From the NCBI GenBank assembly GCA_029819875.1, contig JALGVG010000004.1, forward strand, positions 1 through 57,123: a stretch of 57,123 nucleotides of DNA, read 5' to 3'. The position numbers and the translations under genes were made by a program. Positions 5,708 to 30,197 of the stretch are shown here, piece by piece. A model generated the notes under the pieces. It saw only the letters and a program-made list of their open reading frames with translations. It was not told the origin of the DNA and did no database searches. Numbering within the stretch: the stretch's first letter is position 1; every line of letters starts with the position of its first letter. Origin of the DNA: Candidatus Zipacnadia bacterium (GTDB lineage Bacteria; Armatimonadota; Zipacnadia; Zipacnadales; Zipacnadaceae).

Positions 5708-6508
5708 TTGGATAACATTTCGCAGGCTATAGACCAGCTTGTTGCAATGTCCCGGCACCTGGGAGAGCCGCAACGGGATTACGTCATCCTCGGCGAGGGC
5801 AATACCTCCGCCCGGGCCGATGAAGAAACTTTCTGGGTCAAGGCCAGTGGTGCGCAGCTATGCAACATTGACGCCCAGGGGTTCGTTCGAGTGCGCTTTG
5901 GTCCGGTGCTCGCCTTACTGGATGCCGGCGATGTAACCGAGGAGGATGTCAAGCACACGCTGGCTGAAGCCACGGTGGGCGACACCAAGCTGCGACCCTC
6001 GACAGAGGCCTTCATGCACGCACTGTTGCTGCAACTGCAGGACGTACACTTCGTCGGCCACACCCATCCGACGGCGGTCAACGCCATCCTCTGTGCGCGA
6101 CATCCCAAGCCTGTGTTGCGCGGCAGGTTGTTTCCCGACGAGATAGTGTGTTGCGGGGTTGCGCCCGTCTGGGTTCCATTTGTTCCCCCGGGCGTGGCCC
6201 TCGCCCGGCGCATTCGCCAAAATGTCGAGGCATTCATTGCCCGCTACGGCGAGCGGCCGCGCTCCATTTTGCTGCAGAATCACGGACTCATTGCGCTGGG
6301 AGCAACCCCGGCCGAGGTACAGAACACCACCGCAATGTGGGTCAAGACGGCCCGTATCCTGGCCGGCACGTTTCAATTTGGCGGCCCACATTACTTGACT
6401 GCAACCCAGGTGCAGGAAATACATACCCGGGCTGACGAAAAATACCGCAAAAGCCTATTAGACGGCACACGAGAAAGAGGAGAGCCTGATGCAGGCACAA
6501 CACCGTAA
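5708..6508 (+). CDS. class II aldolase/adducin family protein
   Basis: TTG start with AGAGGTGAG upstream. EGNTSARADEETFWVKASGAQL and VGHTHP motifs are typical of class II aldolases (N-domain of rhamnulose-1-P aldolase/dehydrogenase type proteins). Confidence 0.85.
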   Translation: MDNISQAIDQLVAMSRHLGEPQRDYVILGEGNTSARADEETFWVKASGAQLCNIDAQGFVRVRFGPVLALLDAGDVTEEDVKHTLAEATVGDTKLRPSTEAFMHALLLQLQDVHFVGHTHPTAVNAILCARHPKPVLRGRLFPDEIVCCGVAPVWVPFVPPGVALARRIRQNVEAFIARYGERPRSILLQNHGLIALGATPAEVQNTTAMWVKTARILAGTFQFGGPHYLTATQVQEIHTRADEKYRKSLLDGTRERGEPDAGTTP

Positions 6509-12633: not shown

Positions 12634-15600
12634 GTGATGAAGCGTGATTGGACAATGCCAGTACGCCTGGCAGGCATAATAGCAGGCCTCATGCTGATAG
12701 TAACCGGCGCGGCAGAGGCCAAAACGGACTTTGCCAAGCTGGCAACCCAGGTGAGCGAGGCGCGCCTGAAGCAGGATATGCGCTTCTTTGTCTCTCTGGG
12801 CTCGCGGGTATCAGGCTACCCGGGCAATGCGCGGGCTGCCGATTACATCATCAACGAGTTCAAGCGCCTGGGCATTGAAACCCTCGTCCAGGAATTCGAC
12901 CTCCCCACACCGCTGGACCAAGGCGCTCAACTGCGCATCGGCGACAAGACCTACCAGTTGTCGTGCTTGTGGCCCAACCTGGTCCGCACCTCCCAGGTGC
13001 CCAGCCAAGGCATCAAGGGCAATGTACTGTACGTCGGTCGTGGCAATCTCGCTGACTACAACGGCAAGCAGGTAGCCGGCTCAATTGTGCTGATAGACTT
13101 CAATACAGGCCAAAACTGGCTCAACGCGCCCTTGCTGGGAGCGGCGGCTGTCATCTTCATCGAGCCGCAAACCACCACCCGCGGCGAGGCGGAGATGAAG
13201 TTCCTGCGCGTGCCGGTCAACGTTCCTCGTTTCTATATCCGCGCCGATGACGCAGACGACATCCTCGCCGCCGTCGTCCAGGGCGATGTGACCGGCGTGC
13301 TGACGGCCAACCAAACCTGGGTAAACAGTGTCAATCGAAACATTATTGGAATTATTCCCGGCACCGATCCGCAGCTTAGCAAGGAAGCCATGATTATCGA
13401 GGCATACTATGACTCGATCTCGGTGGTGCCGCGCCTCTCGCCCGGTGCCGAGAATGCCGTCGGCATCTGCGCCTTGCTGGAGATGGCACGCCTGCTTGCA
13501 GAGAATCCACCCAAGCGTACCGTGATACTGCTGGCAACCAGCGGGCACTTCGAGGCGCTGGCCGGCGCGCGCGAGTTTGTCGCGATGTGGGGCCGGGAGC
13601 CGCGCAAGGCGCGCGACCGCTACAAGCAGCTTGATAAGCTCAACAGGCAGCTTGCCGATCTGCAGCGCCAAAAGCAGCAACTGGCCAAGGCCATAGCCGA
13701 AGCCAAGTCACCGAGGGCCGGCGGCGGGCTGGGACAGGTAGCCCGCACCAAGGGCATGGTCGCCATCGGGCAGCTCGAAATCACCTTGCCCAACGCGCTG
13801 CAGCGGGACAAGCGCCTGGAGCGTGATATCGCCCGCAAACAAAATGAAATAAGAATCTGGAAGCGACTGGACCAGTTCGACAAGATAAAGATGTTCATCG
13901 GCCTGGACCTAAGCACCAAGAGTCGCACGCTTGGCGTGTTCAATGTCGGCTCCTACTATCAACAGGTCCAATTCCTCCGCTTCTACTCTCCCGTCGGCAA
14001 GCAATTCGCGGTCCGTGCCAAACAAGCCGCCCTCGCACTGGGTATCACCCCCTCCGAGGCGTTTGTAGACGGCATCAATCCAATCAAGGGCCGCGACTGG
14101 ACCACGTTCTTCCCCGGCAGGGTAGCATTCGACCACGAGATGGCCATCCGCGGGGGGCGGCCCGGCATCCTGTTTGCAACGGTCAACGACGGCCGTTCCG
14201 TGGTTGATACGCCGCTGGATACCTACGAGCATCTCAACCTGCCCAACATGTATGCGCAGATACGCCTGCTTTACGGCTTGCTGGTCGACTTCTTCAACGA
14301 TGAGACATTAAGTCAGCAAGCGCTCAAGCGCGTTGACGCGCTGAAAAAACTGGGCGAACTGGTTGACATCAACGGAACGGTGCTGGAATTTAGGCGGCGC
14401 GAAAGTTTCGTACCCAATACGCCTGTCCCCAACGCCTTGGTGCTCGTGCAGGGCGGCTCGCGGATGATGCTCGGAGTCCACACCACGGTAATGACGATGG
14501 CCAACGAGACGAGCGAATTTACGCTCCGCGGCGAGGGGGCCACCGGACTGCGCCTGCTGGAAGCATATCGTTTCGATCCGCGCAACGGCAATATCGTCTA
14601 CGCACCTGACTTGGGGCCCGACGGCGAGGGCAAGTATCCTCGCGCCGTTCAGGGACGGGCCGGCCTCAAGCGCCCGATCATCGTGTTCCGATGTGCCAGC
14701 ATTGACATATTCGACCTGATAGACGAGCGCTATTTCCAGAGCCTGCAGACGCTGTTTGTCTATGACGCCAAGGACTTCAGTGAGCCGGTCTCGTACGGCT
14801 ACTCGCTGCCACAGCCGCCGGGTGCCACTGAATTCCCCTCCTATGTCGAGCCCTGTGCCGTGGTCTACGCGCCTCCGGATACGCGCGCGCAGATAACCAT
14901 GGGGATGGGGCTGCTGGGCGTGCGCATGGTGCTGATAAATGCCTCGGCCGACAAGCCGACCGGGGCCGGCTTTTTGGCCTCGAGTACTCCGCGTATCACG
15001 CTCACTCCCTTGCAAGTAGCCAAGGACATGTGGCTTATCGACGAAGACCGCATGCGCCGGTTGCAAGAGCGGGGAGTAATCGGCGGTGGCGCACGCAAGG
15101 GCGGCAAGCCAGGGCGCCAGGGACGCCTTGAAGAGCTGCATGCCTTGGCAAAGGCCTCCTTGGATGCCGCCGCAGAGGCTCTTGCCGCTCGCCAATATGA
15201 TAAGGTCATCGCCGCGGCCCGCCATGCGTGGGGTTACGAATCACGCGCTTACCCGGACGTACAAAAAACCGCCCTGGATGTAGTGAAGGGTGTGCTGTTC
15301 TATCTGGCGATGCTGCTTCCGTTTGCCTACTTCGGCGAACGCCTGCTTATCGCCTCGCGCACCATCATCGGCCAGATCGTCGGCACCCTCGTCGTGTTTG
15401 TAATCGTCTTCATCATACTGGCCATGGTACATCCGGCTTTCAAGCTGACTGCTACGCCGCCCATCATCCTGCTTGCCTTTATCATCATGGCGCTGGCGGT
15501 ATTGGTTATCGGCATTGTTACTGCGAAATTCAACGAAGAGCTCAAGGCCATGAAGCAATCCCGCGGTGGGGTGCACGAGGCTGACGTGGGACGCCTGTCG

Positions 15601-22903: not shown

Positions 22904-24826
22904 TCAGGACAGTTCGCGGATATAGTTGAGCATGCCGCCGGCCAGTATTATCTTTCTTTGCCTGTCGGTGAGAACCGGCTTGGCCGGTATGCGGGCCCCT
23001 GAGGAAACATTTTTGCCCGCCAGGATCTTGCCTGCCAGGAGGGCTTGCCTGATGTTGTCAAACTCCAGTACATCCCCTTCGTTCAGTTCATCGTACGTCG
23101 CCCGCTCTATCTGCAGCGGCAGGATGCCGAAGTTGACAAGGTTGGCCTGGTGGATGCGCGCAAACGAGCAGGCCAGCACGGCCCGCACTCCCAGGTAACG
23201 GGGTGCGAGGGCGGCATGCTCGCGGCTTGAGCCTTGCCCGTAATTGTCTCCACCCACGATAAACCCACCCCCCTGGTCAAGCGCACGCTGAACGAAGCCG
23301 GCATCCACCTGCTCAAAGACGTGCCGGCTGAGGGCAGGTATGTTGCTGCGCAGCGGCAGTATCTTGGCCCCGGCCGGCATGATGTGATCGGTAGTGATAT
23401 TGTCACCTACTTTGAGCAGGACCGGCAACCGCAATGTGTCCGGCAACGGTTCAAATTCGGGGAGGGGCTTGATGTTGGGCCCCCGCACGATCTGCACGTT
23501 GCTGCCATCTTCCGGCGGCAGAATAAACATGCTGTTGTCCACGTCGAAGCGCGAGGGCAGTGCGATATGCGGTGGAGCGCCCAGTACCCGCGGATCGGTT
23601 ATCTGCCCGCTGATGGCGGCCGCTGCGCATACCTCGGGGCTGGCCAGGTACACTTGGGCGTCGGGGGTTCCGCTCCGACCGCGGAAGTTGCGGTTGAATG
23701 AGCGCAGGGAGATGCCCTCGCTCGGAGGCGCCTGCCCCATCCCGATGCAGGGCCCGCATGCCGTTTCCAGGATGCGAGCCCCCGCTGCCACCAGGTCCGC
23801 CAGCGCGCCGTTGGCTGCCAGCATCCACAGCACCTGCCGCGAGCCGGGCGAAATCGTCAGGCTCACATCGGGATGGACCGTATGCCCCCTGAGTATGGCC
23901 GCGACCATCATCATGTCGCGTAGCGAGGAGTTCGTGCAGCTTCCGATGCATACCTGGTGCACCGGCGTTCCGGCCAGTTCACTGACCGGGACCACTGCAT
24001 CCGGGCTGTGAGGCTGGGCCACGAGGGGCTCTATCTTTGCCAGGTCCAGTTCCAGTGTCTCCTCGTATTCGGCATCCTCGTCGGCTCCCAGCTCAACCCA
24101 CGCCTCCTCACGCCCTTGGGCGGCCAGAAACTCCCGTGTGCGCGCATCGCTGGGGAACACCGAGCTGGTGGCCCCCAGCTCCGCCCCCATGTTCGCGATG
24201 GTAGCCCGCTCGGGCACCGTCAACGTCAGCACCCCCGGGCCCAAATATTCCATCACCTTGCCTACGCCGCCTTTGACCGACAAGCGCCTCAGCAGCTCCA
24301 GTATGATGTCCTTGGCGGTAACCCACGGAGCCAGCCGGCCATGCAGGCGCACTCCCACCACCCGCGGGGCCGTCAGGTAAAAGGGCTGGCCTGCCATCGC
24401 CGCCGCGACATCCAGCCCCCCGGCTCCCACGGCGAACATCCCCAAGCCTCCGGCAGTAGGCGTGTGGCTATCAGACCCCAACAGCGTCTTGCCCGGCACG
24501 CCGAACCTCTCCAGGTGTACTTGGTGGCAAATCCCGTTCCCAGGTCGCGAGAACACCACGCCGTACTTGGCTGCCACGCTCTGCAAGTAGCGGTGGTCGT
24601 CGGCATTCTCAAACCCCACCTGCAGCGTATTGTGGTCGACGTAGCTGACCGATAGCTCCGTGCGAACGCGCGCAATTCCCAGGGCCTCAAACTGCAGGTA
24701 CGCCAGCGTTCCCGTAGCATCCTGGGTAAGAGTCTGGTCTATTCGAATCGCTATCTCCTCACCCGGCTGCAGTTCACCGCACACCAGGTGGTTCTTCAGC
24801 AACTGCTCGACAATTGTCCCTTTCAC
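22904..24826 (-). CDS. aconitate hydratase, ~640-aa (Aquifex-type / LeuCD-fusion-like) aconitase family
   Basis: Motifs seen: IDQTLTQDATG; SDSHT; CIGSCTNS; ETACGPCIGMG cluster-ligand blocks; swivel-domain GDNYGQGSSREHAA. Confidence 0.85.
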   Translation of the reverse strand: MKGTIVEQLLKNHLVCGELQPGEEIAIRIDQTLTQDATGTLAYLQFEALGIARVRTELSVSYVDHNTLQVGFENADDHRYLQSVAAKYGVVFSRPGNGICHQVHLERFGVPGKTLLGSDSHTPTAGGLGMFAVGAGGLDVAAAMAGQPFYLTAPRVVGVRLHGRLAPWVTAKDIILELLRRLSVKGGVGKVMEYLGPGVLTLTVPERATIANMGAELGATSSVFPSDARTREFLAAQGREEAWVELGADEDAEYEETLELDLAKIEPLVAQPHSPDAVVPVSELAGTPVHQVCIGSCTNSSLRDMMMVAAILRGHTVHPDVSLTISPGSRQVLWMLAANGALADLVAAGARILETACGPCIGMGQAPPSEGISLRSFNRNFRGRSGTPDAQVYLASPEVCAAAAISGQITDPRVLGAPPHIALPSRFDVDNSMFILPPEDGSNVQIVRGPNIKPLPEFEPLPDTLRLPVLLKVGDNITTDHIMPAGAKILPLRSNIPALSRHVFEQVDAGFVQRALDQGGGFIVGGDNYGQGSSREHAALAPRYLGVRAVLACSFARIHQANLVNFGILPLQIERATYDELNEGDVLEFDNIRQALLAGKILAGKNVSSGARIPAKPVLTDRQRKIILAGGMLNYIRELS

Positions 24827-25340
24827 TGTTAACCTCCATTATTGAAATTCAGCCTCGCCCTCTCCATCTATCTGCTATCCAAACCCATACGACGAACAGA
24901 TACCTCTTATGCGCCGGCGCAGGCGCACCGCCACAGTATTGATGGTCCCCAAGACGAATAGAAACTCTGCGCTGCCGGTCGCGCAGATGCTGAAGTATAC
25001 TAAGCCCTTCTGCGCTCAAATATGACAGCTTTTCCCTTTTGGGTGGCAATTTTTTGTGTCACAATAACCCGCAACCCGGCAACAATGCAATAATACAGTG
25101 GGCAAGGGTCCAGGTCAACGGTGCAAGCCTTGCCGCCCGGCATGTGCCGGCCGCCGATGCATGACCTTCAGGGGCGCTTCCCCGGCCGGTCCGGCCAGCG
25201 GTTGTTGAATAGAACGCGGCCTTAGCCTTGCCCTCCGGCGGCGTTCGTGCTACATTAAACGCAACGCCATCAGATCCGTGACAAGCGGCCGGCCGCCACT
25301 ACATGACCGCGTGACAAACGGTGCAAGCATGTTTGATATC

Positions 25341-25360
25341 GTAGCTATCGGTAGCTATCG
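25341..25360 (+). repeat. perfect 10-bp tandem duplication GTAGCTATCG x2 inside the 5' end of the PfkB kinase gene
   Basis: Read directly: 25341-25350 equals 25351-25360. Removing one copy joins ATG 25329 in frame with the long ORF. Confidence 0.95.
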
Positions 25361-25377
25361 GCAGTGCCACCCAAGAC

Positions 25378-26325
25378 GTGTTTCTGGACATCAGTAGGTC
25401 ACATATCATTCGCATCGAAGACGCCGATGGGGAGCATGCTTACTTGGCGCTCGAATACGGCGCCAAGATCCAGGCCGACAAGGTGTTCCTGGCCACCGGT
25501 GGGGGAGCTACCAACGTGGCGGTCACCTTCGCGCGAATGGGGTTGCGTACCGCTTGCGTCTGCAAGGTGGGACGTGATAGCGTCAGCCAGCGCATCATTG
25601 ACGAACTACAACCGGAGGGCATAGACACCTCGCGATTCACCTACAGCGACGAACTGCACACCGGCTTTTCAGTCATCGTGACCACCTTCACGGGCGACCG
25701 TACTATCCTGGTTCACCGCGGTGCAAGCACGGCCCTATCCCGGGAGGATGTGCCCTGGGATATTATCGCCCGCACGCCGTGGCTTTACCTGGGCTCCATG
25801 GCCGGGCCGGCTGCCGAGCTGTGGCCTGTCATTGCGCGGTTTTGCGGCGAGCACGGCGTGAAACTGGCCATCAACCCGGGGCGCTCGCAGCGGGTTCTGG
25901 GGTTGGAGGGGCTGCGCGACGTCTACGCCAACACGACGATTATCTTCGTCAACCAGCAGGAGGCACGGCAACTGACAGGGGTCCCCCAGGAGCGAGGACC
26001 TGACGACGAGACAAGGATGCTGCAAATGCTGCATGATGCCGGGTGCCAATACGTCGTCATTACAGATGGCGCGGCGGGAGCTTACGGCTACGATGGGACA
26101 GCGCAGTACTTTGTACCCGCTTACGAAGTGGACGAGGTCAGCACGGTGGGGGCCGGCGATGCGTTCGCTGCCGGATGCGTGGTGGGACTGTTCCGCAACC
26201 TGAAACTGCCGGACGCCATGCGCATAGGAGCGGCCAATGCCGCCCATGTCGTGCAGGAACATGGGGCCAAGCGCGGCATCATCTCCTGGCAGCGCGCCCT
26301 GCAGTTTATTGCTGAACAAAAGTGA
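25378..26325 (+). CDS. PfkB-family carbohydrate kinase (5' end frameshifted; ancestral start ATG 25329)
   Basis: GGGATNVAVTFARMG, later DTVGAGDAFAAG-type motif (VSTVGAGDAFAAG). The longest intact ORF begins at GTG 25378. Confidence 0.8.
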   Translation: MFLDISRSHIIRIEDADGEHAYLALEYGAKIQADKVFLATGGGATNVAVTFARMGLRTACVCKVGRDSVSQRIIDELQPEGIDTSRFTYSDELHTGFSVIVTTFTGDRTILVHRGASTALSREDVPWDIIARTPWLYLGSMAGPAAELWPVIARFCGEHGVKLAINPGRSQRVLGLEGLRDVYANTTIIFVNQQEARQLTGVPQERGPDDETRMLQMLHDAGCQYVVITDGAAGAYGYDGTAQYFVPAYEVDEVSTVGAGDAFAAGCVVGLFRNLKLPDAMRIGAANAAHVVQEHGAKRGIISWQRALQFIAEQK

Positions 26326-26367
26326 ATATCGCCGCCGATTCAGTGGAGCTCGATTGACGTTGTCCTC

Positions 26368-26838
26368 ATGGGCAAGCGTTCCAGCCTCATGGACCTACGG
26401 ACTAACCTCTTCACAAGAAAGGATGTATCGTACTTGAAATTCCACGCGGTCACAGGATATGTAGCACTAGGGTTGGCAGTCGGCATCCTATCCGGCTTGC
26501 TTGGCATCGGGGGCGGCATTCTGATGGTGCCGGCGCTGACGCTTCTGTGGGGCATGAAAATGCACATTGCGATCGGCACGTCCCTGGCAGTGATGATCCC
26601 CAGCGCCCTCGCCGGCGTTTTGCGCCATCATTTTTCGTACGGCAACGTGGACTTCGTCGTTGCCATACTAGTAGCAATTGGTGCCATAGTCGGCAGCTTC
26701 TGCATTGGTGCCCCGCTTGCCGAGGTATTGCCATCCTCGGTCCTCAAGCGGATTTTTGGCGCTGCCATGATAGTCTTGGGCGTCTACTATGGCTGGCTTC
26801 AGCCCTACATCGCGCATATCGCCGCAAACGGTCGTTAA
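26368..26838 (+). CDS. half-size TSUP (TauE/SafE) family membrane transporter
   Basis: GLLGIGGGILMVPAL...GTSLA motif and 4 predicted TM helices. The true start is possibly TTG 26434, 12 nt after AGAAAGGA. Confidence 0.7.
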   Translation: MGKRSSLMDLRTNLFTRKDVSYLKFHAVTGYVALGLAVGILSGLLGIGGGILMVPALTLLWGMKMHIAIGTSLAVMIPSALAGVLRHHFSYGNVDFVVAILVAIGAIVGSFCIGAPLAEVLPSSVLKRIFGAAMIVLGVYYGWLQPYIAHIAANGR

Positions 26839-26871
26839 CCATCACACCCAACCATCTGCCGGGGCGACGTC

Positions 26872-28221
26872 ATGAAGGAGAGTGTGAAGCAGTTGAGGAG
26901 GACAGCATGGACGGTAGTTGCCGCGCTACTGCTCTTGGACACCTGCATGACCGCCACGGCCAGCAAGTCGCTCTCCTCGTTGGAGATAACCGTCTGTATC
27001 ATGGAACCGACGTGGGCGCTGTTAAGTTGGCAACCCGGCAGAGGTGTTGACGCTTACCGGGTCTCGTATCGGTCAACCATTCGCCTGCCCAAGCAGCGTT
27101 GGCGCATAGTTCAGACGCAAAACCCCTGGCATCTTCTGCGCGACTTGAAACCAGATACCGAATACCAGGTGCGCATCAGTGCACTGGCCCGGGGCGCTGC
27201 TGCGGGGAAGCGGTACGCCGTGCTGGCCCGTGGCGAGGCGTTGTTTACTACTCCACCCGACCGGGCGAGGCTTTGGCAAGGGCTTGAAATACACCCCAGC
27301 CGGGCGTTGAATACCCTCGGCGCCACCACCTGGCCCGCACTGGCCTCCCTGTCAGAGCGGTTGTTCCTGTTTGAATTCCTGGCCGGGGGGCTGTATGTAT
27401 CGGAGCTGAAACCCGGCCGATTGACGCCGCTTTACAGCCTGCCACTGCTCGCCGGCACAGAGGGCACTGATCGCTTCTGCTTGACTGCGTGCGTGTTGGG
27501 AGGGCGGATATGGTTGACTTGGATCGAGCGGCAACAGGCAGGCGGCATCCAGATGCTGGCTTCGTGGGCACCTGATGAGGAAGGCCCTATCACGCCCACC
27601 GAAATCGCCCGGGCACGCTGGTGCTCCATGGCGCCTGCGGGTGACCAGTTGTGGCTCGTGTGGCAGCCTGCAGGTTCCGGTGACAAGCCGTTTGTGGCGG
27701 CGCCGTACACGATAGGCGTGGGACTGGGACAATCAACCCTCTGGGATGATACTCCCCCCGGAGCAGTCCAGCCCTCGGTCGCCTCGTTCCACGCCCAGAT
27801 GGCCATTCCGTTTATAGTGGAACAAGACGGGCGCCGTTCGCTGTGGTGCACGCTGTTCAACAGCGAAGCGTTCACTGATATGCGGATGTTGCGACGCCTG
27901 GGAGACAGTTCCACGCCCCGCGCCTGCGCGCTGGAAGGTTCCCTGTACGTGGTCTACAACAACCACCTGCACTATTCCCAGGGTGCAACGCCCAGAGCGG
28001 ACCTGGTGGTGACCCAGGTCGACCCCGGCGGTTTCAGCCTCAGCAGCACGGTATTGGTGGGGGATGGTAATTTCAACTGCTGCGCCTCGCTGGCACTCCT
28101 GGATGGATCCCTGTGGGTGGCTTACAACAAGTCATTCGCCGATCCTGCCACCTCCCGGCTCATCAACCTGGGGACTTTCTTGACGCGCATTGCACTGCCG
28201 CCCCTGCAGACCTCCTCCTGA
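26872..28221 (+). CDS. exported protein with fibronectin type III domain and repeated G-x-L-W-L/V-x-W/Y strands
   Basis: Signal peptide and FN3-like segment (WALLSWQPGRGVDAYRVSYRS...LKPDTEYQVRISAL). Four blade-like repeats follow (GGRIWLTWIE, GDQLWLVWQP, EGSLYVVYNN, DGSLWVAYNK). Confidence 0.6.
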   Translation: MKESVKQLRRTAWTVVAALLLLDTCMTATASKSLSSLEITVCIMEPTWALLSWQPGRGVDAYRVSYRSTIRLPKQRWRIVQTQNPWHLLRDLKPDTEYQVRISALARGAAAGKRYAVLARGEALFTTPPDRARLWQGLEIHPSRALNTLGATTWPALASLSERLFLFEFLAGGLYVSELKPGRLTPLYSLPLLAGTEGTDRFCLTACVLGGRIWLTWIERQQAGGIQMLASWAPDEEGPITPTEIARARWCSMAPAGDQLWLVWQPAGSGDKPFVAAPYTIGVGLGQSTLWDDTPPGAVQPSVASFHAQMAIPFIVEQDGRRSLWCTLFNSEAFTDMRMLRRLGDSSTPRACALEGSLYVVYNNHLHYSQGATPRADLVVTQVDPGGFSLSSTVLVGDGNFNCCASLALLDGSLWVAYNKSFADPATSRLINLGTFLTRIALPPLQTSS

Positions 28222-28241
28222 GACTGTCTACCCCGGCACTG

Positions 28242-29243
28242 CTATATCGCAGTGGCAAAGGCTTGCAGGATTTGGGTCAGCACTATCAAGGCCTCGGCAG
28301 TGGCATCAACGACGTCGGACTCCTCGTTTTCACCCATTGACAGCATCAGCCAACTGCCGTTGCTCAGTTGCATTTCCAACAGGTTGTTGCCCACTTCCTC
28401 GGTGGTCTGCGCATAGCTGGTGCTGCCGGTGGCCGTGTAAAGCACCGCGGCCGCCCACCCTACAAATGCGCTCCTTTCGCTGCTGTACCGGTCATCAGAG
28501 CAGCCCGCTATGAATGTCATGTAGGCTTGTGCGGCATCCAGGTATTTTCGCTCGCCGGTTGCCTCGTACATCAGGCCCAAGAAACCGGCAGCCATGGCCG
28601 GTACATGGTACCATTGCTCGGGCTTGGTAGCATCCACCAGGTACATCTTCAGCATTGCATCGGGAATGGTAGTGATGAGTGTTTGCCCATTGCGCACTGC
28701 GTAGAAGAGGTGGGTATCGGCCCCGGCAGGTTGTTCATCCAGCAGCCAGATGAGGAACTCGGCGGCGCTTGCGGCTGCCTCCAGGTTACCGGTGTGAAGC
28801 ATGGCCAGGCCCACTGTGGCCGTGGTCAACGCATCCTGTTCGTCGTCAAAGCCGGCGCTGGGCCCAATGCTGAAAAAGCCACCGGTCTCGGGATGTTGCA
28901 AGGTGGCCAAGAATGAAGCTGCGGGTATGGAGATTCCGAATTGGCCCAGCCGGTGCGCACCGCATACCACCCATGAGTTGGCAAGCAGATAATGGCTCTG
29001 GTGAAGGGGAGTGCGCGGGAAATGACCGCCGATATCACCCTCCTCGTCCAGGCAGTTGGCCTGTATCCAACTGCACAATCTTGCCGCCCGTTCGACCTGC
29101 CCCATCACCGCCAGCGCCATCAATACCTTGTGAAAGGTGGCTACTCCCAGTCGCACGGGCCTAAACGAGCCGTCCTCGTTTTGCTGGCTCAGTAACCATT
29201 TGGTTCCTGCGATTGTCGCCTGCCGGTACCTCTTAATGTCCAT
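28242..29243 (-). CDS. prenyltransferase/squalene-oxidase-repeat (alpha/alpha toroid) protein
   Basis: QW-like motifs at both ends (WLLSQQNEDGSFR, LLEMQLSNGSWLM). The body is helical-repeat rich and has no signal peptide. Confidence 0.6.
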   Translation of the reverse strand: MDIKRYRQATIAGTKWLLSQQNEDGSFRPVRLGVATFHKVLMALAVMGQVERAARLCSWIQANCLDEEGDIGGHFPRTPLHQSHYLLANSWVVCGAHRLGQFGISIPAASFLATLQHPETGGFFSIGPSAGFDDEQDALTTATVGLAMLHTGNLEAAASAAEFLIWLLDEQPAGADTHLFYAVRNGQTLITTIPDAMLKMYLVDATKPEQWYHVPAMAAGFLGLMYEATGERKYLDAAQAYMTFIAGCSDDRYSSERSAFVGWAAAVLYTATGSTSYAQTTEEVGNNLLEMQLSNGSWLMLSMGENEESDVVDATAEALIVLTQILQAFATAI

Positions 29244-29381: not shown

Positions 29382-30197
29382 ATGAAGCCGGCCACAATTA
29401 TTGAACCCGACGACGCGCACCAAGCACTGCTCAGAGAGTTTGACCTCAGGGAGATAGACAACCCTCAAGCGCGGGCTGCACATCGCCTCAAGTACATGGC
29501 ACGCCTCAACGCCGTGCTCCGGGCGGTACAGCGGGCTGTCCCGGCCGGCGGCCGCGTGCTGGAGGTGGGCTGCTCGCAGGCAAATGCCAGCTTGCTGCTG
29601 GCAGAGCAGGGATATCGGGCCGTCGCCGTGGACTTGCTGCCCGCGGCGCTCGCTTATGCGCGCAAGAAATACCAGTACGGGCAGTTCATGCCTGTAGTCG
29701 GCAATGCCGCGCAACTGCCCTGTGCACCCGGCAGCTTCGATGCCGTCATCCTCGGCGAGCTGCTGGAACACTGCTCCCAGCCACCCTTGATCATTTCACA
29801 GGCGCTGGACAAGCTGCGGCCGGCAGGCCTGCTAGTTGTCACCACACCCAATCGCTCGCTGCGCTCCGGCAGCCTGCCGACCTACGGCGAATTCGAACCC
29901 TCCACCGACAGTGAACATCACCAGTACGGCCCCCACGGGGACCACCATCTTTTCGTCTTCACCGCCGGCCAGCTACGGCGCCTGCTGGCGGACTGCGGCC
30001 TGCAAAACGTCCGTCTGCGCCTGATCGGGTGCCCGGTGATGTCGGACAGGTTCTTCCCGCTCAAACGGTTGCTGCCGTTGGGGGTCATAAACCTGGTGAG
30101 TGACTTGGTATGCAATGTGCCGATTGTCGGGCCCAAAGTGGCCTACACGCTGATGGCCACCGGCCGCAAATCTTCGCACGAAAGGAGCTGTCAATGA
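29382..30197 (+). CDS. class I SAM-dependent methyltransferase
   Basis: VLEVGCSQANASLLLAEQGYRAVAVDL (motif I) and FDAVILGELLEH are present. Confidence 0.85.
   Translation: MKPATIIEPDDAHQALLREFDLREIDNPQARAAHRLKYMARLNAVLRAVQRAVPAGGRVLEVGCSQANASLLLAEQGYRAVAVDLLPAALAYARKKYQYGQFMPVVGNAAQLPCAPGSFDAVILGELLEHCSQPPLIISQALDKLRPAGLLVVTTPNRSLRSGSLPTYGEFEPSTDSEHHQYGPHGDHHLFVFTAGQLRRLLADCGLQNVRLRLIGCPVMSDRFFPLKRLLPLGVINLVSDLVCNVPIVGPKVAYTLMATGRKSSHERSCQ

Follow-up and report, generated by a model that had tools for sequence, protein, structure and literature searches.

A 10-bp tandem doubling that frameshifts a conserved PfkB-family kinase gene in an Armatimonadota draft genome: assembly error or young null allele

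Near the start codon of a gene for a sugar-kinase-like protein, the 57,123-bp contig analysed here (referred to as the window, i.e., the whole stretch of DNA under study) carries a 10-bp sequence that is written twice in a row and that throws the gene out of frame. This raises the question of whether the doubling is a mutation that the sampled cells carry, a device that turns the gene on and off, or a mistake in the assembled record. The host is an uncultured Armatimonadota bacterium, judged by the names of homologues, and is represented by a metagenome-assembled genome (MAG) of 246 contigs and 2.56 Mb (81% completeness).

The sequence in question, GTAGCTATCG, is present back to back on the plus strand (copy 1 at 25341-25350 and copy 2 at 25351-25360), and the perfect 10-bp tandem duplication that a first-pass annotation of the window had placed at 25341-25360 thus proved exact in its coordinates and in the identity of both copies. 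Locally, the window reads ATG TTT GAT ATC GTAGCTATCG GTAGCTATCG GCAGTGCC, with a period-10 identity that spans 25341-25361 and hence leaves a microhomology of 1 nt (i.e., the G at 25361). As was also claimed at first pass, the doubling shifts the reading frame near the start of a PfkB kinase gene, at codons 5-8. The native start codon, ATG 25329, is common to the orthologues and to a sister contig from another assembly (see below), and the frame that it opens in the window (25329-25397, plus strand) reads MFDIVAIGSYRQCHPRRVSGHQ and ends after 22 codons at the TAG stop at 25395-25397. Copy 1 brings a stop codon (TAG 25342-25344) into the frame of the downstream ORF, so that this frame is open only from 25345 (over 326 aa), while copy 2 lies in the frame of the kinase body, where it reads VAIG. 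The first common start in the open downstream frame is GTG 25378, from which a PfkB/ribokinase-fold kinase body of 315 codons extends to 26325 on the plus strand with no internal stops, but without the native residues 1-13. The public gene calls on the window contig (P0001 at NCBI and P0121 at IMG) do not start at this GTG but at TTG 25444 (25444-26325, plus strand), yielding a protein of 293 aa from which 35 N-terminal residues are missing. When one copy of GTAGCTATCG is removed, an unbroken ORF of 328 codons results, again ending at 26325.

The doubling at 25341-25360 is the sole perfect tandem doubling with a unit of at least 10 bp in the 57-kb window, for which a first-order Markov simulation yielded an expectation of 0.12 perfect 10-bp doublings. 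Throughout the 2.56-Mb MAG, six perfect 10-bp doublings were seen versus approximately 3.6 expected from a rough composition estimate, and only the one at 25341-25360 disrupts a recognised gene. A chance origin of the repeat was ruled out by the sister contig, which is 99% identical and has the same flanks and one copy.

This sister contig was found through matches to P0122, the kinase protein that it encodes, and to a TauE protein, and it is deposited both as IMG 3300033141 Ga0366833_1066310 (L013) and as JALGUA010000202.1 of GCA_029821095.1 (L014). At the DNA level it is 99.0% identical to window positions 23796-28710 (over 4.6 kb) and belongs to the same species. The differences amount to 36 SNPs over 23796-28434, four more in a terminal piece of 314 bp, and two indels, the first of which is the 10-mer, single-copy in the sister contig. 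The second is a 36-bp perfect tandem doubling in the sister contig that is single-copy in the window (28399-28434). The sister protein P0122 (328 aa) matches the protein restored from the window letter for letter and falls, as a third member, in the same 90% cluster as the window's gene call; the 315-codon body of the window is 100% identical to its residues 14-328. Exact-protein look-ups with the window's gene call, the aconitase and the fn3-like protein encoded alongside it revealed no further assemblies. A pattern scan of metagenome contigs for one, two or three copies of the unit likewise returned nothing, near-identical records seemingly being absent from that collection.

The single copy is accordingly the ancestral state and the doubling the derived one, with an intact allele kept in the species. 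All six SNPs inside the kinase gene are synonymous, whereas 2 of the 14 SNPs in the aconitase gene (12 synonymous) and 7 of the 12 in the fn3-like neighbour (five synonymous) are non-synonymous. Because of this contrast, the kinase frame must have been under purifying selection until essentially now. The SNPs that separate the two contigs occur in clusters, with seven in 50 bp (23873-23923), five in 75 bp (25789-25864) and four in 55 bp (27141-27196), which suggests strain recombination or a mosaic consensus of co-occurring strains.

What the doubling takes away depends on what the gene encodes. Both the 315-aa ORF and the restored 328-aa protein match PF00294 (PfkB) with 172.3 bits against a cut-off of 25.8 (E-value of 2e-50). 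The kinase scores below every NCBIfam equivalog cut-off, and even the nearest of these, the ribokinase equivalogs, are not reached (147.6 bits vs. 299.65 and 131.9 vs. 341 for TIGR02152 and NF008353). By equivalog score, the protein is therefore classed as a member of the PfkB family and not as ribokinase proper. An AlphaFold2 model of the 328-aa sister protein (pLDDT of 95) superimposes on E. coli ribokinase (RbsK, PDB 1rkd) with TM-scores of 0.86 and 0.92 over approximately 330 aligned columns in Foldseek, i.e., it has the ribokinase fold of an alpha/beta domain with a beta-sheet lid. The kinase shares with RbsK a GG motif, an NxxE motif (N205 and E208) and a GAGD catalytic motif (G271-D274), and residues G54, G55, N205, E208 and G271-A272-G273-D274 are invariant among 38 homologues and all present in the window's ORF. 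It differs from RbsK in being only approximately 25% identical, in the lid hairpin, which is longer by an insertion of 16 residues, and in reading GGGATN where RbsK has GGKGAN. All in all, the gene looks unremarkable: it is a conserved kinase gene of Armatimonadota whose ribokinase-fold product is predicted to act on a carbohydrate or a nucleoside.

The segment that is lost lies at the N-terminus, where G-S-x-T/N-x-D aligns with G11-S12-x-N14-x-D16 of RbsK. Across the 38 homologues, G8, T11 and D13 do not vary, and D3 and S9 hardly do. A profile alignment, for which the RbsK sequence used agrees with the retrieved one over residues 33-302, placed T11 and D13 opposite N14 and D16 of E. coli ribokinase, two residues that bind the ribose hydroxyls in the 1rkd structure. 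Strand beta-1 comprises residues 4-7 in the AlphaFold2 model. In the window as written, this G-S-x-(N/T)-x-D strand beta-1 segment is not in frame with the kinase body: codons 1-8 are in another frame than the body and are separated from it by TAG 25342-25344, while the motif is whole in the sister contig. Any restart at GTG 25378 or TTG 25444 would therefore lose G8, T11 and D13, with the invariant substrate-binding residues among them, together with a core strand. The claim made at first pass that a restart at GTG 25378 would lack the first beta-strand and the conserved Asp is thereby borne out.

Full-length orthologues without stops (45-60% identity) were found in approximately 26 of 30 relatives, all Armatimonadota from across the order, and the gene is missing from approximately four. 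The restored N-terminus recurs in these relatives with the pattern M-[FYH]-D-x-x-x-x-G-S-A-T-E/Q-D, and all eight loci oriented on the plus strand begin M-[FYH]-D-[IL]-[IV]-x-x-G-S-A-T-E-D-V-F, without the repeat. The DNA at the doubling site differs in the orthologues and holds no repeat tract there. The comparison of orthologous loci that had been proposed as a check accordingly returned relatives with an uninterrupted start and no repeat, and the 20-nt sequence is not natural to orthologues. The proposal that deleting one copy joins a PfkB N-terminus in frame to the body held as well, the product being equal to the sister protein and in keeping with all orthologues. Within the MAG, the best paralogue of the kinase is 29% identical, i.e., there is no close one. 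Directly downstream of the kinase, a gene for a small membrane protein of the TauE/SafE family (132-156 aa) follows in the window (26434-26838, plus strand), in the sister contig, whose copy matches PF01925, and at the loci of relatives from two other genera (L002, L006 and L010), and the kinase and TauE genes are probably part of one operon.

Three readings of the doubling had been offered at first pass, i.e., a recent slipped-strand inactivation, an on/off switch, and an assembly or consensus artefact. These reduce to two, since nothing supports the switch: the unit occurs only twice, and neither the sister strain nor the orthologues have a repeat tract. Artefact and pseudogene are both kept, with a tilt towards the former. 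We thus judge a local assembly or consensus error in the metagenome scaffold to be the explanation with slightly better than even prospects. The sequence would have been written twice at a seam in the scaffold, leaving a doubled 10-mer in the record, and the cells themselves would carry an intact 328-aa PfkB-family kinase, as in the sister assembly.

This explanation draws on what happens elsewhere in the MAG, where perfect tandem doublings recur in a pattern tied to contig ends and are accompanied by near-end deletions. MAG-wide, 11 of the 16 perfect tandem doublings with units of at least 14 bp lie less than 600 bp from a contig end, versus 1.8 expected (binomial p-value of 1.2e-7). Doublings with units of 7-9 bp occur at a chance-level count and are spread evenly along the contigs, with no end bias. 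The unit lengths near the ends include 14, 15, 17, 17, 24, 39, 47, 64, 65 and 83 bp, with a microhomology of 0-4 nt, and approximately two thirds of these units are not multiples of 3 (i.e., they are frame-blind), as expected without selection. The MAG thus demonstrably holds a class of frame-blind perfect doublings. Two of them break recognisable genes, namely fliI (a 17-mer doubling 372 bp from the contig end, C106:372-405) and a GHMP kinase gene (a 47-mer doubling 435 bp from the contig end, C220:435-528). When one copy is ignored, both genes read through with complete Pfam domains (for fliI, ATP-synt_ab 1-213 of 213 and T3SS_ATPase_C 1-71 of 72).

Besides the fliI and GHMP kinase sites, doublings of 14-83 bp located 200-550 bp from contig ends were seen at C237:440-467, C237:3884-3913 and C244:374-421, so that C237 has a doubling approximately 440 bp in from either end. 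Further near-end doublings of the same class are located at C226:4268-4345, C51:2476-2641, C86:550-677 and C170:5850-5979. The 36-bp doubling in the sister contig (CTCGGTGGTCTGCGCATAGCTGGTGCTGCCGGTGGC; L013 4594-4665) is in frame, lies 276 bp from the contig end and is directly followed by two mismatches; its counterpart in the window is the single copy within the minus-strand ORF 28242-29243. This doubling has the appearance of a near-end seam of the same class, here in the other assembly.

Frameshifts of other kinds are present as well. The sole gyrA gene of the MAG falls into two open frames (profile positions 1-374 and 371-799), which part at profile position ~372 owing to an insertion of 1 nt (GAG GGT G CTG AAG; C216 at approximately 30,023-30,036, minus strand) that repeats neither neighbouring base. 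The T and the G at this site could be the two alleles of a synonymous SNP in a Gly codon, written in succession. Being in the sole gyrA, this lesion cannot be biology. A homology census against 1.4 Mb of the related genome G002, in which orthologue matches cover 515 kb of the MAG, retained the gyrA lesion together with four others. These are a +2 shift in a Ser/Thr protein kinase (C19 at approximately 14,400-14,450), where GTG has become GTGTG within the linker, a +1 shift in an SRPBCC-family protein (C191 at approximately 6,426-6,430), and two out-of-frame deletions relative to the orthologues, one of approximately 73 nt in a Gfo/Idh/MocA oxidoreductase (C99:379-406, 379 bp from the contig end) and one of approximately 34 nt in a histidine kinase (C144:292-318, 292 bp from the contig end). 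Other candidates from the census were discarded: those on C64, C74, C165 and C175 were gene boundaries or unconvincing matches (three of them via antisense ORFs of the relative), C100 was an apparent gene boundary, C243 was too weak, and C220:1806 proved to be an N gap. The scaffolds of the MAG hold N gaps of 35, 20, 4 and 42 N.

Near-end doublings and near-end deletions would both result if a contig were wrongly joined to a short terminal piece: an overlap written twice would leave a doubling, and a gap closed with nothing would leave a deletion. It speaks against this explanation that a contig from a de Bruijn graph alone has no means of creating a new junction k-mer, so that the error would have to have entered at a scaffolding, gap-closing or local-assembly step. 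A fixed k-mer overlap (of 55 or 127 bp) was ruled out by the unit lengths in the MAG, which range from 10 to 83 bp. A repeated-k-mer loop in a small-k graph is unlikely, as the nearest internal repeat in the single-copy sequence is TATCG, with a spacing of 9 instead of 10, and the microhomology is only 1 nt. MAGs are documented to contain local assembly errors, among them sequence duplicated where scaffolds were joined (Chen, Anantharaman, Shaiber, Eren and Banfield 2020, PMC7111523). The present case resembles these in that a blunt, perfect short repeat breaks a conserved ORF, in that an independent assembly of the species lacks it, and in that the window's assembly contains many similar events near scaffold ends, together with N gaps and out-of-frame deletions. 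It differs in that the published cases concern flanks duplicated around N gaps and consensus stretches that no read supports, whereas the site here is internal and free of Ns.

Several observations speak against an assembly error. The doubling lies 25,341 bp from the nearer end of the 57,123-bp contig, the longest of the MAG, with no Ns nearby, whereas the clear artefact class is confined to approximately 550 bp of the contig ends. Moreover, the internal perfect doublings of the MAG mostly look natural, being multiples of 3 (24, 39, 15, 12 and others) or located in apparently non-coding DNA (including a 44-mer on C35 and a 16-mer on C207). Because of this natural pattern, internal seams may be rare in the MAG. 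Tandem duplications are also a common natural mutation. Although the site is internal, we infer that 25341-25360 belongs to the error class of the MAG. The absence of the doubling from another assembly of the same species supports an error without being decisive, as that assembly represents a different strain or sample. With regard to the internal doublings, the 44-bp perfect doubling on C35 (C35:13306-13393, minus strand) spans the Shine-Dalgarno sequence and the first eight codons of a gene whose product begins MARERFER and that looks like tuf; translation from the upstream copy would end after a short ORF, while from the downstream copy the gene reads intact.

The main alternative, to which we give a serious but clearly less than even chance, is that the doubling is real, i.e., that a very recent slipped-strand duplication knocked out the kinase in the sampled strain or population, where it could be fixed or the majority allele. 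Short tandem duplication is a well-established source of spontaneous frameshifts, and the present one stands in the scaffold as deposited at both IMG and NCBI, far from the contig ends. The sister contig differs by 0.8% SNPs and hence represents a different strain, which could simply retain the intact allele, and the absence of the gene from approximately 4 of 30 relatives means that the kinase is not strictly essential. That the gene shows no other lesion fits a very young event, but the 100% amino-acid conservation relative to the sister, with six synonymous changes, requires the inactivation to be extremely recent. The mutation would moreover have removed three invariant residues (G8, T11 and D13) with no close paralogue to compensate (29% identity at best), and it would sit in a MAG whose sole gyrA is broken and whose numerous frame-blind doublings and deletions are difficult to explain biologically. 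In its form, the locus resembles a spontaneous tandem-duplication pseudogene, with a head-to-tail copy that is not a multiple of 3, an early stop, an otherwise untouched gene, and a close strain with the intact allele. Natural duplications of this kind, however, often have a flanking microhomology of a few bases instead of the 1 nt seen here, and the genomic background suggests an error in the record and not gene decay.

If the doubling were real, the kinase would be a fresh pseudogene, and the 315- or 293-aa restart products should be inactive because they would lack strand beta-1 and the sugar-binding Thr and Asp; expression of the downstream TauE gene might drop as well. A further step would be that the cells do contain the doubling and that a wild Armatimonadota population has just lost a kinase kept across the order, perhaps along with its TauE partner, in a way that slippage could revert. 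We regard this scenario as very unlikely. If true, the polymorphism would be a natural loss of function that can be reversed, and it could give a clue to the substrate or role of the kinase-TauE pair.

Readings in which the doubling has a function fare worse, and even jointly a switch and recoding merit at most a small probability. A reversible on/off (phase-variation) switch, with the copy number of the 10-mer toggling the kinase by slippage, seems highly doubtful. Two perfect tandem units could in principle contract to one and restore the frame, and the one-copy and two-copy states both occur in one species. Only two units are present, however, the single copy of the sister strain does not amount to a tract, and the orthologues have different DNA without a repeat at the site. 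The 5′ ends of other genes show no comparable repeat, and the 10-mer is just one of many doubling unit lengths scattered through the MAG. Simple-sequence-repeat contingency loci in Neisseria, Haemophilus and Campylobacter likewise have a repeat in the 5′ coding region whose copy number sets the frame on or off, but there the 1-7-nt units form long tracts that persist as such from strain to strain, and the genes under their control are mostly surface or restriction-modification genes. The present unit is 10 nt long, occurs in one or two copies without a tract in relatives, and lies in the gene of a cytoplasmic kinase of housekeeping type, which is not a usual contingency-locus target.

Slighter still is the chance that the sequence is real and a working kinase is nevertheless made, either by programmed +1 frameshifting within 25345-25395 or from a start at ATC 25357 or GTG 25378: the downstream frame is open from 25345 and the zero frame stops at 25395, so that a +1 shift in this 50-nt overlap would rescue the protein with a 3-residue insertion, but inspection of 25329-25397 by eye revealed no slippery or hungry-codon motif, upstream Shine-Dalgarno-like stimulator or stimulatory structure, the arrangement is unique to the window record with nothing conserved (all homologues being in one frame), and an ATC or GTG start would remove part or all of strand beta-1 and, in the case of GTG, also T11 and D13.

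Neither of the two surviving readings, i.e., an assembly artefact or a young null allele, is novel biology, and the doubling matters mainly as a data-quality flag. The public call of the kinase gene (293 aa from a TTG start) is probably incorrect, and further suspect frameshifts in this draft genome affect gyrA, fliI, the GHMP kinase gene and the Ser/Thr kinase gene. Inferences of pseudogenes or gene loss from this MAG should consequently not be trusted without the reads. If the mutation is real, it would be an ordinary young null allele. The one mild point of biology is a conserved, as yet unstudied gene pair in Armatimonadota, made up of the genes for this unnamed PfkB kinase and the adjacent TauE-family protein.
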